Source: Escherichia coli (lineage in GTDB: Bacteria > Pseudomonadota > Gammaproteobacteria > Enterobacterales > Enterobacteriaceae). From it: a DNA stretch of 64,000 bases. The position numbers and the translations under genes were made by a program. The DNA lies in the NCBI RefSeq assembly GCF_022846255.1, contig NZ_AP025682.1. One strand, written 5' to 3'. Below the pieces are notes generated by a model that worked only from the letters and a program-made list of their open reading frames with translations, was not told the origin of the DNA and did not search any database. The stretch's first letter is position 1; every line of letters begins with the position of its first letter. Positions 1,675-43,271 of the stretch are shown in pieces.

Positions 1675-3900
1675 ATGCGGTGGATCCTGTTCATCCTCTT
1701 CTGCCTGTTGGGCGCACCTGCCCACGCGGTATCCATACCCGGCGTTACAACCACAACGACAACGGACTCAACGACTGAACCGGCCCCGGAACCGGATATC
1801 GAACAAAAAAAAGCGGCCTATGGCGCACTGGCGGATGTGCTGGATAATGACACCTCGCGTAAAGAGTTGATCGACCAGTTGCGCACCGTCGCCGCGACGC
1901 CCCCTGCGGAACCCGTACCGAAGATCGTGCCGCCGACGCTGGTTGAAGAGCAAACCGTGCTGCAAAAGGTCACCGAAGTCAGCCGCCATTATGGTGAAGC
2001 CCTTTCCGCCCGCTTCGGGCAACTTTATCGCAATATCACCGGCTCCCCGCATAAGCCGTTTAATCCACAAACCTTCAGCAATGCGCTGACCCACTTTTCA
2101 ATGTTAGCGGTATTAGTGTTTGGTTTTTACTGGCTGATTCGTCTGTGCGCACTGCCGCTGTATCGCAAAATGGGCCAGTGGGCGCGGCAAAAAAATCGTG
2201 AGCGCAGTAACTGGTTGCAGCTTCCGGCGATGATCATCGGGGCGTTTATTATCGACCTGCTGTTACTGGCACTGACATTATTTGTCGGCCAGGTATTAAG
2301 CGACAACCTGAATGCGGGCAGTCGCACCATCGCTTTCCAACAAAGTTTGTTTCTCAACGCCTTTGCCCTGATTGAATTTTTCAAAGCCGTACTACGCCTG
2401 ATTTTTTGCCCAAACGTGGCTGAACTGCGCCCGTTCACGATTCATGACGAGACCGCCCGTTACTGGAGTCGTCGCCTGAGCTGGTTAAGCAGCCTGATTG
2501 GCTATGGTCTGATTGTGGCTGTGCCGATTATCTCTAATCAGGTGAATGTACAGATAGGTGCGCTGGCAAACGTCATCATTATGCTGTGCATGACCGTCTG
2601 GGCGTTGTACCTGATTTTTCGTAATAAAAAAGAGATCACCCAGCATTTGCTCAACTTTGCGGAGCATTCGCTGGCCTTTTTCAGCCTGTTTATCCGCGCC
2701 TTTGCGCTGGTGTGGCACTGGCTGGCAAGCGCCTATTTTATCGTGCTGTTTTTCTTTTCGTTGTTCGATCCGGGCAACAGCCTGAAATTTATGATGGGTG
2801 CAACGGTGCGCAGCCTGGCGATTATTGGTATCGCAGCATTTGTTTCCGGTATGTTTTCCCGCTGGCTGGCAAAAACCATCACCCTCTCGCCACATACTCA
2901 GCGTAACTATCCAGAACTGCAAAAACGGCTGAATGGCTGGCTTTCGGCGGCGCTGAAAACGGCGCGTATTCTGACCGTCTGCGTGGCGGTAATGTTGCTG
3001 TTGAGCGCATGGGGATTGTTCGATTTCTGGAACTGGCTGCAAAACGGCGCGGGGCAGAAAACCGTAGATATCCTGATCCGTATCGCACTCATTCTTTTCT
3101 TCTCGGCGGTTGGCTGGACGGTGCTCGCCAGTTTGATCGAAAACCGGCTGGCTTCGGATATTCATGGCCGCCCGCTACCCAGCGCCCGTACGCGAACCCT
3201 GCTGACGCTGTTCCGTAACGCGCTGGCGGTGATTATCAGTACCATCACCATCATGATTGTGTTGTCGGAAATCGGCGTCAATATCGCGCCATTGCTGGCA
3301 GGTGCCGGGGCATTAGGTCTGGCTATCTCGTTTGGTTCGCAAACGCTGGTGAAAGATATCATTACCGGAGTATTTATTCAGTTTGAAAACGGCATGAACA
3401 CTGGAGATTTGGTGACTATCGGGCCGTTGACCGGCACTGTGGAACGGATGTCGATTCGCTCCGTGGGCGTGCGCCAGGATACCGGGGCGTATCACATCAT
3501 TCCGTGGTCTTCGATAACCACCTTTGCTAACTTCGTCCGCGGTATTGGTTCGGTAGTGGCAAATTATGATGTTGATCGCCATGAAGATGCTGATAAAGCC
3601 AATCAGGCACTGAAAGATGCGGTAGCGGAATTAATGGAAAACGAAGAAATTCGCGGGCTGGTTATTGGTGAACCGAACTTTGCCGGGATTGTCGGCTTAA
3701 GCAATACCGCGTTTACACTGCGTGTTTCGTTCACCACGCTGCCACTCAAACAGTGGACGGTCCGCTTTGCCCTCGACAGCCAGGTGAAAAAACATTTCGA
3801 CCTGGCGGGTGTTCGCGCGCCGGTGCAGACTTATCAGGTGCTGCCAGCTCCGGGCGCGGCCCCGGCTGAACCGTTGCCGCCGGGGGAGCCAACGCTTTAA
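1675..3900 (+). CDS. ybiO: MscS-family mechanosensitive channel YbiO
   Basis: ORF track 1648-3900; start at MRWILFILF gives 741 aa as I recall for YbiO; signal peptide, multi-TM region and MscS-like C-terminal domain. Confidence 0.9.
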
Positions 3901-4823
3901 CGCTGGCGATTGACAAAACGGCGGCGCTGCTCGTCGTTCATAAAGGTCCAGGCTATAAAGCGGCTCTGCTTTTGCCCCTGGGCCATCTCTTTTTTTACCA
4001 CCTTCACCGCACCTACGTCCGTCAGAGCACGATACAACGGCGGTAAGTTTTCACCACGAGATACCAGCGAGGTAAACCACATCACCTGCTTCGCGAAGCC
4101 TTTGCTCTCTTCAATCATCTTTTTGATAAAAGCGACCTCACCGCCTTCACACCACAACTCCTGTTGCTGACCACCAAAGTTCAGTGCATCGTCTTTGTTC
4201 AGCCCCAGGTTACGGCGTTTACGTTCACTACCTGCCCGTGCCGCAGCGGCGGAATCGTGGAATGGCGGGTTACACAAGGTCGCATCGTATTGCTCGTTTT
4301 TATGGATGATGCCGTTAAAAATCGCCCCACTCTCTTTTTGCCGACGCAGACGAATAGCGCGGTTAAGCCCCGGATTAGCACTGATGATCGCCTGCGCACT
4401 GCTTAACGCCTGGCTGCTGGTTTCACTACCGGTAAAACGCCAGCCATATTCATGTACGCCAATCAGCGGATAAATACAGTTCGCACCAACGCCGATATCC
4501 AGAATGCTGGCATTAGCTGGAATTGTTCCGCTTGCTTCAGCCAGTAAATCGGCAAGGTGATGAATATAATCCGCCCGGCCCGGTACTGGCGGGCAGAGAA
4601 AACCGTCCGGGATATCCCAGTTCGCTACGGCGTAAAAATGGGCCAGCAACGCCTTATTGAGCGCCTTCACCGCCAGCGGATTGGCAAAGTCTACGCTTTG
4701 CTCCCCGGTGGGTGTAAGCGTGAGGAATTGCCTGAGTTCAGGATTGACCTGACAAAGCGTGGCGAGATCGTAGCGGCTGTGATGACGGTTGCGCGGATGC
4801 AACCCCGGTTTCTGGGCGGACAT
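3897..4823 (-). CDS. rlmF: 23S rRNA m6A1618 methyltransferase RlmF
   Basis: ORF track 3897-4913; internal start [14 protein letters not shown] gives 308 aa; SAM-methyltransferase motifs ([15 protein letters not shown]). Confidence 0.92.
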
Positions 4824-5098
4824 AGCATTCTCCTTTAAGCAGCGGCGTAAGATACTCGCATAACGCGACAGGGTAAATATCTGGCTGCGTTTATCATTTC
4901 TAAAAACCTTCACATGGATATGGTTTATGGCAATTCACCATAAAAATCATCATCATGCATGTCATTGATTTGTCTTATTTTGTAAAAATATATCGTTCAA
5001 AAAATAAGCGCATCTCTGTCAATTTTTTGCGTCATTTTCATCGCGCAGGCGACCTACACTTATCTGGCACTACCCGTTGTATTTATGAGGATGTCATT

Positions 5099-5359
5099 AT
5101 GAAAAAGTGCCTCACACTACTGATTGCCACCGTCCTGAGCGGAATCTCTCTCACGGCTTATGCCGCGCAACCGATGAGTAACCTGGACAGAGGTCAACTA
5201 CGGCCCGCCGGTACCGTTTCGGCAACTGGCGCATCAAACCTAAGCGATCTGGAGGATAAACTGGCAGAAAAAGCGCGCGAACAAGGCGCGAAAGGTTATG
5301 TCATTAATTCCGCAGGCGGAAATGACCAGATGTTCGGTACTGCAATCATCTACAAATAA
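5099..5359 (+). CDS. mcbA: DUF1471 (YdgH/BhsA/McbA family) periplasmic protein McbA
   Basis: 86-aa ORF from ATG at 5099, signal peptide then the family C-terminal ...GTAIIYK. Confidence 0.9.
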   Translation: MKKCLTLLIATVLSGISLTAYAAQPMSNLDRGQLRPAGTVSATGASNLSDLEDKLAEKAREQGAKGYVINSAGGNDQMFGTAIIYK

Positions 5360-5374
5360 CCCCACCAACGTAAC

Positions 5375-5399
5375 TGCATTCGTCTCTGGATGCAGTTTT
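5375..5399 (+). terminator. intrinsic terminator after mcbA
   Basis: Hairpin ctgcattcgtctctggatgcag followed by TTTT. Confidence 0.6.
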
Positions 5400-5494
5400 C
5401 GTCCGATTTGTAAGCAAAAAACATCAAATATGAACGCAATGTAAATAAATGTATTTCTTTTTCGCGCAATGGGTGATAGAAAATCGCGCCAAGT

Positions 5495-14365: not shown

Positions 14366-14563
14366 ATGATGCGTAAAGCGCTTCGCGCTAAATTCGAACA
14401 ACATGCAGAACTGCGTACACTCTTGCGGGCAACCGCGTCCGCAAAACTGGTTGAGCATACGCAAAATGATGCTTACTGGGGAGATGGCGGTAATGGTCAG
14501 GGCAAGAATCGCCTGGGGTACCTTTTAATGGCGTTGCGCGGACAATTGGCTGCGGAGAAGTAA
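14366..14563 (+). pseudogene. ybiA: ybiA (NADAR-family N-glycosidase) 3' remnant; 5' two-thirds absent
   Basis: ORF 14258-14563: last about 65 aa (MRKALRAKFEQHAELR...GKNRLGYLLMALRGQLAAEK) resemble the YbiA/NADAR C-terminus; the rest of the frame reads through the dinG LexA box and start codon; full-length YbiA is 160 aa as I recall. Confidence 0.6.
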
Positions 14564-14646
14564 CGCATCGGGTGGCTTGTGGGCGTTAAAACAGAGAAAT
14601 CTTTTTGCCGCGCTCGCAAATGGCTGACAAGTGCTTGTTGTGAAAT

Positions 14647-14745
14647 GCCGGATGCGGCGCGAGCGCCTTATCCGGCCTACAAAAACATGCACATTCAATA
14701 TATTGCAGAGTTCACGTAGGCCTGATAAGCGTAGCGCATCAGGCA
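14647..14745. repeat. REP elements between ybiA remnant and rhlE
   Basis: gccggatgcggcgcgagcgccttatccggcctac and gtaggcctgataagcgtagcgcatcaggca. Confidence 0.85.
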
Positions 14746-14768
14746 GTTTTGTGTTTGTCATCAGTCTC

Positions 14769-14789
14769 ATGCCGGGCATAGCCCGGCAT
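14769..14789. terminator. palindromic hairpin just downstream of rhlE (atgccgggc-ata-gcccggcat)
   Basis: Perfect 9-bp inverted repeat 7 nt past the alternative-frame rhlE stop; no clear U-tract. Confidence 0.4.
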
Positions 14790-14795
14790 AAAAGA

Positions 14796-16149
14796 TTACT
14801 GCGCAGCGGCAGGTTTACGCGGACGGCGGCGACGTTGTTGTTCGCCTGCCGGTTTGGCATCGACGAGACGGTTTTTCTGCGGGCTTCGCGTTACCAGACT
14901 TCGCACCACTTTCCGTACGGCGTGGTTGCTGTTGACCGCGACCACCGCCCTGTCCACGACCGCCGCCACGTTGCTGGCGACCGTTCTGGATCGGTTCGGC
15001 TTTGATTGACGGGTCCGGCTCATACCCCGGAATCGCAATGCGCGGGATCTCTTTTTTCAGCAGTTTTTCGATATCACGCAGCAGTTTGTGTTCATCAACA
15101 CACACCAGCGACAATGCTTCGCCAGTTGCCGCCGCACGGCCAGTACGCCCGATACGGTGAACATAATCTTCCGGTACGTTTGGTAACTCATAGTTGACGA
15201 CGTGCGGCAACTCTTCGATATCCAGACCGCGCGCAGCGATGTCAGTTGCCACCAGTACACGAATATCGCCCGATTTAAAATCGGCCAGCGCACGAGTACG
15301 CGCACCTTGCGATTTATTACCGTGGATCGCCGCACTACGGATGCCGTCTTTATTAAGCTGTTCAGCCAGATGGTTAGCGCCATGTTTGGTACGGGTAAAC
15401 ACCAGCACCTGCTGCCAGTTCCCTTTCCCAATCATATGCGACAGCAATTCGCGTTTGCGTTTCTTATCGACAAAGTGAACGTGCTGGGTCACCTGATCAG
15501 ACGCAGTATTGCGGCGTGCCACTTCGATTTCCAGCGGGTTGTGCAACAGTTTTTCCGCCAGGGCTTTAATATCGTCAGAGAAGGTCGCGGAGAACAACAG
15601 GTTCTGGCGCTTCGCTGGCAGTTTTGTTAACACGCGACGGATATCGTGGATAAAGCCCATGTCGAGCATGCGGTCAGCTTCATCAAGGACGAGGATTTCA
15701 ACCTGATCCAGCTTCACTGCATTTTGATGTTCCAGGTCCAGCAGACGTCCCGGCGTTGCCACCAGCACATCAACGCCGCCGCGCAACTTCATCATTTGTG
15801 GGTTAATGCTGACACCGCCAAACACCACCAGCGAACGAATGTTCAGATATTTGCTGTAATCACGGACGTTTTCGCCAATCTGCGCCGCCAGTTCACGGGT
15901 CGGGGTAAGAATGAGCGCGCGTACCGGACGACGCCCTTTGGCGTGCGGCTGGCGAGTGATCAGGTGTTGCAACAACGGCAGCGTAAAGCCCGCTGTTTTG
16001 CCGGTACCGGTCTGGGCGCTGGCCATCAGGTCGCGGCCTTCCAGCACCGCAGGGATCGCCTGCTGCTGAATAGGGGTGGGTTCACGGTAACCCTGCTCGG
16101 CAACGGCGCGCAGGATATCAGGGCTTAAACCCAAAGAATCGAAAGACAT
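14796..16149 (-). CDS. rhlE: ATP-dependent RNA helicase RhlE (DEAD-box), C-terminal tail frameshifted
   Basis: ORF 14815-16149 (444 aa) has Q motif, [23 protein letters not shown]; the RhlE-like basic terminus ...[20 protein letters not shown] is in a different frame (ORF 14796-15038). Confidence 0.85.
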
Positions 16150-38957: not shown

Positions 38958-39434
38958 ATGAAACTCATCAGTAACGATCTGCGCGATGGCGATAAGCTGC
39001 CGCATCGTCATGTCTTTAACGGCATGGGTTACGATGGCGATAATATTTCACCGCATCTGGCGTGGGATGATGTTCCTGCGGGAACGAAAAGTTTTGTTGT
39101 CACCTGCTACGACCCGGATGCGCCAACCGGCTCCGGCTGGTGGCACTGGGTAGTTGTTAATTTACCCGCTGATACCCGCGTATTACCGCAAGGGTTTGGC
39201 TCTGGTATGGTAGCAATGCCAGACGGCGTTTTGCAGACGCGTACCGACTTTGGTAAAACCGGGTACGATGGTGCAGCGCCGCCGAAAGGCGAAACCCATC
39301 GCTACATTTTTACCGTTCACGCGCTGGATGTAGAACGTATTGATGTCGATGAAGGTGCCAGCGGCGCGATGGTCGGGTTTAACGTTCATTTCCACTCTCT
39401 GGCAAGCGCCTCGATTACTGCGATGTTTAGTTAA
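38958..39434 (+). CDS. ybhB: PEBP/RKIP-family (kinase inhibitor-like) protein YbhB
   Basis: 158-aa ORF with PEBP motifs (YDPDAPT..., GxHRY). Confidence 0.92.
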   Translation: MKLISNDLRDGDKLPHRHVFNGMGYDGDNISPHLAWDDVPAGTKSFVVTCYDPDAPTGSGWWHWVVVNLPADTRVLPQGFGSGMVAMPDGVLQTRTDFGKTGYDGAAPPKGETHRYIFTVHALDVERIDVDEGASGAMVGFNVHFHSLASASITAMFS

Positions 39435-41009: not shown

Positions 41010-43271
41010 TTACATCTGACGGTTTTTATTGAAGTTAATCAAACTACCCGCCTTGATAATCTCGCGCTCTTCGGCCGTCAGGCTTTCCATATAGAGCGTG
41101 ATTTCCGTTACCGGCGCATCTTCATGGATCACATAACCTTTAAACGTCGTTCCAGGATTATCCAGCGCCGTTTTAATGCCAGGGATGTAAATGTAATCCC
41201 CCACTTCAAACGTTGGTGCTTCCGCCATTTGCAGCGGTAACATCCCCCAGTTGATGACGTTAGAACGGTAGCGTTTAGTCGCGTATTCCTCGGCAATATT
41301 CGCCAGACCGCCAATCACACGCTGGCAGCTCGCCGCCTGCTCACGCGCAGAACCATCGCCTGGTTTCACCGCATAGACCATGCTGCCAATTTCAGTTTGC
41401 AGCGGATCAATATGCTCCTGACCAGCAATCTGCTTAATGCGCGCAAACACCTCTGTCAGCTCGCTGACATTCCCCGCCAGACGCTGATTTTCCAGCTCAG
41501 CAGTCGCTTTACTTCTGCCAACATAACCGGGATCGCGGCGTGACAGGGTAAACTCCGCCAGACCAATCGGATTTGAACGATAAGAAGAGGTTTCACCGGA
41601 AGGAATCAGTTCGTCGGTGGTGGTGACTTCGTCGAGGATCTTCGAGCACACTTTGAGGACGATATTGTCAGTCAGCGCACCCAATTCCGGCCAGTCTTTG
41701 ATGTTCGGTCCGTAGATCAGCGGTTGCTGGGTCGCCCCTTTCACAAAGCCTTGATAGACGCGATTTTTATACGGCGTTACATCGAAGGCGTACTCCGGCA
41801 CGTTGTCCCAGCAATCGAGTTCGCTGGCAGAGGTTAAATAGCCACCGTTTGCCGCAGTCGCAGCGATAGAACGAGCGTCCATCAACGCCACCGCTGACAT
41901 CTGCCCATTAGCTGGCTTAGAGCCTTCGCGGTTCGGGAAGTTACGCGTGGTGTGGCGAATACTCAAACCGTTGTTGATTGGCGTATCGCCCGCGCCAAAG
42001 CATGGGCCGCAGAACGCGGTTCTGATGATTGCGCCTGCGCCAATCAAATCTGCTACCACACCTTTTTTGGCGAGATCCATAAACACCGGCTGTGATGACG
42101 GGTAAACCGCCAACGAGAAGGTATCGTTGCCGCAGGATTGACCGCGCAGCGCATTCGCCGCCGCGATGACGTTTTCGTAGTTACCGCCAGAACAGCCCGC
42201 GATAATCCCCTGCTGCACTTTCAGGCGACCATTTTCCACTTTATCCAGCAGCGAGAGTTTGGCTTTACCGTGCGCCACGCGTTCGGACTCAATTTCAATC
42301 TCACGCAGAATGTCGGTCAGATTCTGGTTCAGCGTGTCGATTTCATACACGTTGCTCGGGTGGAATGGCAGCGCAATCATTGGTTTGATGGCGCTTAAAT
42401 CAACACTGATGCAGCCATCGTAGTACGCCATTGGTTGAGGGTTAAGTTGGCAGTAATCCTGGCCGCGACCGTGCAGCGCCAGCCAGTTATGGACTTCTTC
42501 ATCGGTTTGCCAGACAGAACTTAAACAGGTCGTTTCAGTGGTCATCACGTCAACGCTGTTGCGGAAATCGGTAGAGAGCGCTGCAACACCGGGACCTACG
42601 AACTCCATCACTTTGTTTTTGACGTAACCGTTTTTGAACACGGCACCGATGATAGCCAGCGCCACATCCTGCGGCCCCACATACGGCGCAGGTTTTCCGG
42701 TCAGATGCACCGCAACCACGCCCGGATAGTCGATATCCCAGGTGTCATTAAGCAGTTGTTTTACCAGCTCGCCGCCGCCCTCACCGACTGCCATTGTCCC
42801 TAATGCGCCGTAACGGGTGTGGCTGTCTGATCCGAGGATCATTTTGCCGCCGCCAGCCATCATTTCACGCATATATTGATGGATGACCGCAATATGCGGT
42901 GGCACAAAAATACCGCCATAACGCTGGGCCGCCGATAAACCAAAAATATGGTCATCACCGTTAATGGTGCCGCCGACGGCGCAGAGTGAGTTATGGCAGT
43001 TGGTCAGCACATACGGCAGCGGGAAACGTTCCATACCGGACGCTTTAGCGGTCTGTACAATACCAACAAAGGTAATATCGTGAGAGGCTAATGAATCAAA
43101 CTTAATTTTAAGTTTATCCATATTACCAGACGTATTATGAGAAGAGAGAATAGACCAGGCAATAGTGCCTTTTTTTGCTTCTTCTTTTTTTATTTCGCCG
43201 GTGAAATGTTCTTCGGCAATTATTTCGTTATTGCTGGCGAGAAACACGCCTTTTTCAGATAACTTGATCAT
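41010..43271 (-). CDS. ybhJ: aconitase-family [4Fe-4S] hydratase YbhJ
   Basis: ORF track 41010-43295; 753 aa from MIKLSEKG; aconitase motifs (SDSHT, AGCSGG, CGPCFG cysteine ligands), C-terminal swivel-like domain. Confidence 0.9.

Follow-up and report, generated by a model that had tools for sequence, protein, structure and literature searches.

Why does the rhlE gene of this Escherichia coli strain end in two overlapping reading frames, and what does this arrangement mean for the helicase that it encodes? The question is raised by a stretch of 64,000 nucleotides (64 kb; hereafter the window) in which the frame that carries the helicase body and a shorter frame that carries the usual RhlE C-terminus run side by side on the minus strand. 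We hold with good confidence that the window carries a genuine and heritable 8-bp deletion, most likely produced by slippage and recurrent but rare, and that the altered protein is probably a near-neutral or slightly harmful hypomorph, not the remains of a dead gene.

An 8-bp deletion at the 3' end of rhlE

The window matches E. coli throughout, and the best match among 5,426 complete RefSeq genomes is FEX669 (O150:H6), with 99.8% identity over the first 34 kb. The annotated neighbours of the gene place it in the order cecR–rhlE–ybiA–dinG, a position shared with UTI89, FEX669, K-12 and TW10590. An earlier note on this DNA had drawn attention to the two minus-strand frames, and the ORF list returns both with the coordinates and residue counts given there; the features of the region are collected in Table 1. 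The note had also proposed that the frames diverge at about 14858–14872 as the result of a small indel of a length that is not a multiple of three. Alignments to rhlE of UTI89 and to FEX669 identify this indel as a deletion of 8 bp: a single gap separates the window from UTI89 rhlE, the 181 aligned bases being otherwise identical, and comparison of the whole window with FEX669, the nearest complete genome, puts the gap on the minus strand at 14861/14860, inside the proposed interval. The junction thus lies between 14861 and 14860, its placement being ambiguous across 14860–14863. In the alignment to UTI89 the sequence is CCGTCTCGT[CGTCTCGG]CGATGCC in the wild type and CCGTCTCGTCGATGCC in the window. 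The deletion call is the deterministic result of an alignment and not a statistical pattern, so that chance is no issue.

Table 1. Features of rhlE and its 3' flank in the window
Feature	Position in window	Strand	Details and source
rhlE coding frame, current	14815..16149	-	444 codons plus TAA stop at 14815-14817; ORF list, NF007882 match
DEAD/DEAH helicase domain, residues 25-196, complete	15562..16077	-	Pfam PF00270, E=2.3e-50
Helicase_C domain, residues 232-339, complete	15133..15456	-	Pfam PF00271, E=6.1e-31
Overlapping ORF in another frame	14796..15038	-	80 aa; ORF list
What is kept of the basic, disordered C-terminal extension: residues 386-430, with the RGG-rich stretch	14860..14994	-	translation, charge count
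Surviving 8-bp repeat copy CGTCTCGT plus CG microhomology	14861..14870	-	alignments, gap position
14 new codons in shifted frame	14818..14859	-	translation
Native tail, out of frame, with original TAA stop	14796..14861	-	3' end of ORF 14796..15038
Stable stem-loop from native stop codon, core ATGCCGGGC-TAT-GCCCGGCAT	14760..14796	-	RNA fold -26.2 kcal/mol, z=-4.67

An identical-prefix check against the wild-type B2-type protein (WP_000007119.1) shows that residues 1–430 of the window RhlE are unchanged and that the frame changes after Arg430, with 14 new residues in place of the 23 native ones, exactly the exchange that had been claimed. Translation ends 19 nt ahead of the native stop. The reference rhlE genes of K-12 and UTI89 both end in the conserved arginine-rich motif, and neither has the CQTGRR... 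tail of the window.

Two explanations would leave the strain with a normal RhlE. The gap could be a sequencing or assembly error in a strain that encodes the full-length protein, a caveat already attached to the earlier note, and in keeping with this no complete RefSeq genome has the B2-type junction (the deletion is absent from all 1,292 complete genomes in which the exact B2-type motif occurs). Yet at least 23 contigs (56 blocks of the contig index) encode precisely this 444-aa protein. They originate from the drafts of five genomes at NCBI, from SRA runs assembled by Logan and from ENA assemblies of human-gut metagenomes, that is from isolates and metagenomes assembled independently by different pipelines; for the strain of the window itself, the deletion is supported indirectly, by three near-identical contigs (L007, L008 and L009). 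One set of carriers, group c (L014, L016, L018, L019 and L021), forms a coherent clade: across 15 kb its members are separated by 0–12 SNPs, the wild-type genome with the best local match is about 50 SNPs away, and the coherence of this clade indicates that the deletion is inherited and is not a random product of software. An equivalent deletion exists in a closed genome on another allele, the loss of 8 bp in non-homopolymer sequence is atypical of platform errors, and the 64-kb window has no second frame-breaking indel relative to FEX669. An error is therefore a highly improbable explanation of the gap. Alternatively, a programmed +1 ribosomal frameshift could join the two frames, so that the native tail would still be made, and the native tail codons and their stop are indeed unbroken in the window, one nucleotide out of register. 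Against this, all the relatives examined encode RhlE in a single frame and the two-frame arrangement is a rare and derived state; moreover, we know of no +1 slippery motif or stimulator that fits the CGU-CGA-UGC junction. We rejected the idea of a programmed frameshift gene on these grounds and give it practically no credence. A look-up in exact-sequence clusters returned neither the wild-type nor the frameshifted RhlE although the contig index lists both, and its negative answer is therefore uninformative.

What the protein keeps and loses

The gene is rhlE by every membership criterion tested save the in-frame terminal motif. The window protein scores 955.1 bits against the NCBIfam RhlE equivalog NF007882 (cut-off 743), its residues 1–437 matching profile positions 1–440 of 456 while positions 441–456 remain unmatched. 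Core motifs I, II (DEAD), III (SAT) and VI (HRIGRTGR) are present in the translation, and Pfam finds both helicase domains complete (Table 1), as expected from the claim that the helicase core is unbroken. The further claim that the basic C-terminus has gone out of frame needs to be narrowed: the terminal sequence is indeed out of frame, but the loss concerns only the last third of the extension and the RGG-rich part stays. The net charge of the extension falls from +14 to +11 after the deletion. In orthologues from 13 enterobacterial genera the extension is 63–96 residues long and otherwise variable, and in all 13 it ends in a recognisable arginine-rich motif of the form G-x-x-K-P-A-G-x3..., which is absent from the window protein and lies out of frame in the window (Table 1). 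The frameshift thus deprives a fast-evolving, disordered extension of its single conserved element. The stem-loop that starts at the native rhlE stop is unaltered by the deletion. For want of a T-run behind it, it escaped a simple terminator scan, and for the same reason we do not class it as a terminator, stable though it is.

To our knowledge RhlE is the least understood DEAD-box helicase of E. coli. It has been associated with ribosome assembly and, from in vitro work, with binding of RNase E and RraA (PMC1616957, PMC3814787, PMC8266600), and deletion of rhlE causes no noticeable growth defect (PMC1616957). The literature that we searched yielded no experiments on the tail of E. coli RhlE. 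The nearest comparison is with Pseudomonas aeruginosa, where the disordered C-terminal extensions of RhlE proteins contribute to RNA binding, to unwinding, to phase separation and to interaction with RNase E, and where removal of the whole extension abolishes unwinding and phase separation in RhlE1 and RhlE2 and, in RhlE2, also the interaction with RNase E (PMC11260450, PMC8266600). Like these engineered truncations, the window allele loses basic, disordered C-terminal sequence and keeps the RecA-like core; unlike them, it alters only the last third of the extension instead of dropping it whole, and the extensions of the two species are not homologous in sequence. By this analogy the basic extension of E. 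coli RhlE may act as an RNA tether, and the most probable product of the window allele would be a stable enzyme with somewhat weaker tethering to RNA or to its partners. Such a change would be near-neutral in the short term, which fits the persistence of the allele in small lineages, and mildly harmful in the long term, which fits its rarity and the conservation of the motif.

Compared with ordinary E. coli RhlE (b0797; NF007882; WP_000007119.1 in B2), then, the window protein is alike in residues 1–430, in its domains and in the visible core motifs, and its gene lies at the same locus, between cecR and a ybiA remnant followed by dinG; it differs in its last residues, in the missing terminal motif and in the charge of the extension. 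Taken alone, the deletion is a minor lesion at the level of the strain, in a gene that is not essential. Annotation pipelines render it either as a 'frameshifted' pseudogene (PGAP, TW10590) or as a 444-aa protein, although the cell very probably continues to produce the enzyme core. A natural tail-swap allele that is made repeatedly offers a ready-made reagent for probing the terminal arginine-rich motif.

Probable slippage at a tandem near-repeat

Short tandem near-repeats are a classic context for slipped-strand mispairing. The B2-type wild-type allele has two adjacent 8-bp units at this site, CGTCTCGT followed directly by CGTCTCGG, with a period of 8 bp and 7/8 identity. In K-12 the repeat is less perfect (CGTCTCGC followed by CGCCTCGG); the sequence of the repeat region is CGTCTCGTCGTCTCGG in B2-type and CGTCTCGCCGCCTCGG in K-12-type alleles. 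A core CTCG-N-CG at the 8-bp period is common to all alleles, and two synonymous CGC to CGT changes in the B2-type alleles produce a perfect 7-nt repeat. The deleted length equals the period of the direct repeats, and the deletion recurs with either repeat copy kept, leaving T, G or C at the junction on distinct backgrounds. Slipped-strand mispairing during replication is thus the most likely cause of the deletion, which removes one unit of the 8-bp tandem near-repeat, shifts the frame after Arg430 and exchanges the last 23 residues for 14 unrelated ones. As a lesion it falls into a well-known class, that of direct-repeat slippage deletions, and it is an ordinary, rare, strain-level variant. 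The tandem-repeat hotspot of lacI is a direct-repeat (slipped-strand) deletion hotspot of this kind, and the likeness extends to the loss of one short tandem unit, to independent recurrence and to the retention of either copy; unlike lacI, rhlE has just two imperfect 8-bp units, with no expansion to three seen and hence no reversible switch. A three-unit repeat was sought in the 5,426 complete genomes and none was found; the normal 61-bp sequence was all that the query matched, in two pieces that overlap. The absence of three-unit expansions from complete genomes points to one-way loss and not to a phase-variable tract; with two units only, we rejected a phase-variable contingency locus.

Several backgrounds carry the deletion. 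Over ±3 kb (7.3 kb of sequence), each of three deletion haplotypes has its own wild-type counterpart among the complete genomes, only 0–2 SNPs away: FEX669 is the closest to the window, CFIAFB20120266 is identical to L004 and L005, and Trh52 is the closest to L006. The same three haplotypes differ from one another by 42–62 SNPs. The B2 lineage represented by L006 and L015 (GCA_001285645.1) has an alternative junction, CGTCTCGG followed by CG rather than CGTCTCGT followed by CG, and encodes the same protein; this is the other product expected from slippage and supports that mechanism. We also constructed the product expected from the same deletion on a K-12-type allele, a protein of 445 aa, and sought it in the contigs. 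It is encoded on 20 contigs that represent at least three nucleotide haplotypes; these are separated by 37–55 SNPs per 1.9 kb, and their junctions are of the T or the C type. One carrier is the closed genome of the ETEC strain TW10590 (NZ_CP035850.1), in which PGAP annotates rhlE (EXE32_RS22465) as 'frameshifted'. This pseudogene shares with the window the 8-bp deletion, the repeat and the new 14-residue tail, and differs from it in being a K-12-type allele with the junction CGTCTCGC followed by CG and a 445-aa product, in a distant phylogroup and with a full-length ybiA downstream. The same event is therefore already on record, without comment; among the open-access papers and preprints searched we found no description of this deletion. 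The K-12-type carriers also led us to reject, as an absolute rule, a hotspot limited to B2-type alleles.

Origin, frequency and selection

The different junction bases found on one allele class make it nearly certain that the deletion arose at least twice, and it probably arose five or more times. The opposite reading, a single origin (or one per allele class) followed by spread through homologous recombination, would do without any mutational hotspot, and recombination has clearly been at work here: the window and contig L017 have an identical 11.6-kb centre and different outer flanks, a plain recombination mosaic, and the two may go back to a single event, reshuffled by recombination afterwards. 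Similarly, the B2 haplotypes a, b and c have the same junction with no informative SNP within about 1–2 kb (around the junction, from locus position 3175 to 5424, no SNP tells haplotype a from haplotype c), and here too short-tract recombination, not independent mutation, may be the reason why they share it. A single origin nevertheless has to contend with the three junction bases (T, G and C), each of which is the one that slippage would leave on its own background, with the background-specific SNPs that L006 retains on both sides of the junction, 640 bp upstream and 440 bp downstream, and with the K-12-type carriers, which differ by 2–3% within rhlE itself; we consider it very unlikely. The recurrence of the deletion at an 8-bp tandem repeat offers a clean example of homoplasy, and could mislead indel-based typing. 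Several independent origins could also be taken as a sign that selection favours tail loss, through retuned interactions of RhlE with its partners or with RNA that would help some gut or pathogenic lineages in a case of parallel adaptive evolution. The carriers do persist in lineages known from isolates and from human gut metagenomes, and rhlE is recurrently hit in ageing K-12 colonies, where 7 of 96 mutants had an IS1 insertion in the gene (PMC5431349). On the other side, the allele is very rare (about 0.03–0.24% by index blocks), the repeat context is sufficient for recurrence, and the retention of the tail motif in 13 genera points to long-term purifying selection. Adaptive loss of the tail is accordingly improbable in our estimate; positive selection may be entertained as an outside chance, though the data are explained without it, and we are just as doubtful of its more specific form, the repeatedly selected loss of a conserved C-terminal short linear motif at which RNA, RNase E, RraA or ribosomal particles may dock. 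Were it true, selected tail loss would adjust RNA metabolism in certain E. coli lineages of the gut or with pathogenic habits, and the deletion variant would be produced at a higher rate in B2 strains through the synonymous changes that perfect the repeat there.

The frequency of the deletion is low: it is found in 1 of the 5,426 complete E. coli genomes. Scanning JGI metagenome contigs for the junction, with T or G allowed, gave no match. The deletion may be commoner on B2-type than on K-12-type alleles: index blocks number 56 for the deletion product and 23,265 for the wild-type protein on the former, and 20 and 58,908 on the latter, a comparison that is confounded by clonal sampling, since index-block counts reflect sampling and clonal expansion and not mutation rates.

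Two papers report mutations of rhlE. The IS1 insertion at K-12 position 831184 has been called the 'rhlE hotspot' of ageing colonies (PMC5431349); we rejected it as a description of the present site, the insertion being elsewhere in the gene. An rhlE mutation is also reported in phage-resistant APEC17 (PMC12057083).

Some minor features of the locus and of the window deserve mention. Between rhlE and dinG the window retains only a 198-bp 3' fragment of ybiA (14367–14564, plus strand), a gene for a NADAR-domain N-glycosidase; PGAP annotates ybiA as an incomplete pseudogene in B2-type genomes, and the full 483-bp gene is present in K-12 and TW10590. The spacer between rhlE and ybiA (14600–14790) contains REP/BIME-like palindromic repeats, and a 401-bp query that included it gave about 100,000 matches in 5,425 genomes, with a median of 14 per genome. 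Elsewhere, a poly-A tract in ybiO (at about 1805) is one base longer than in FEX669, the only other coding indel difference between the two; ybiO is annotated as frameshifted in FEX669 and the window copy appears intact. In ybhJ (41211–41215), paired +1/-1 indels 4 bp apart keep the frame relative to FEX669 and amount to a local multi-base substitution. At 38958–38961, between ybhB and bioA, the window has an empty site; the 1.29-kb insertion that occupies it in FEX669 carries a gene for an InsQ/TnpB-family RNA-guided endonuclease. Two of the other carriers have mobile DNA downstream of ybiB: a filamentous-phage-like block with Zot, a secretin and a DUF2523 protein in L015 (15278–21293; GCA_001285645.1), and, in the gut-metagenome contig L016 (15732–20869), a prophage-like block with a DNA methylase, a resolvase and a SASA-domain protein, which truncates hcxB.
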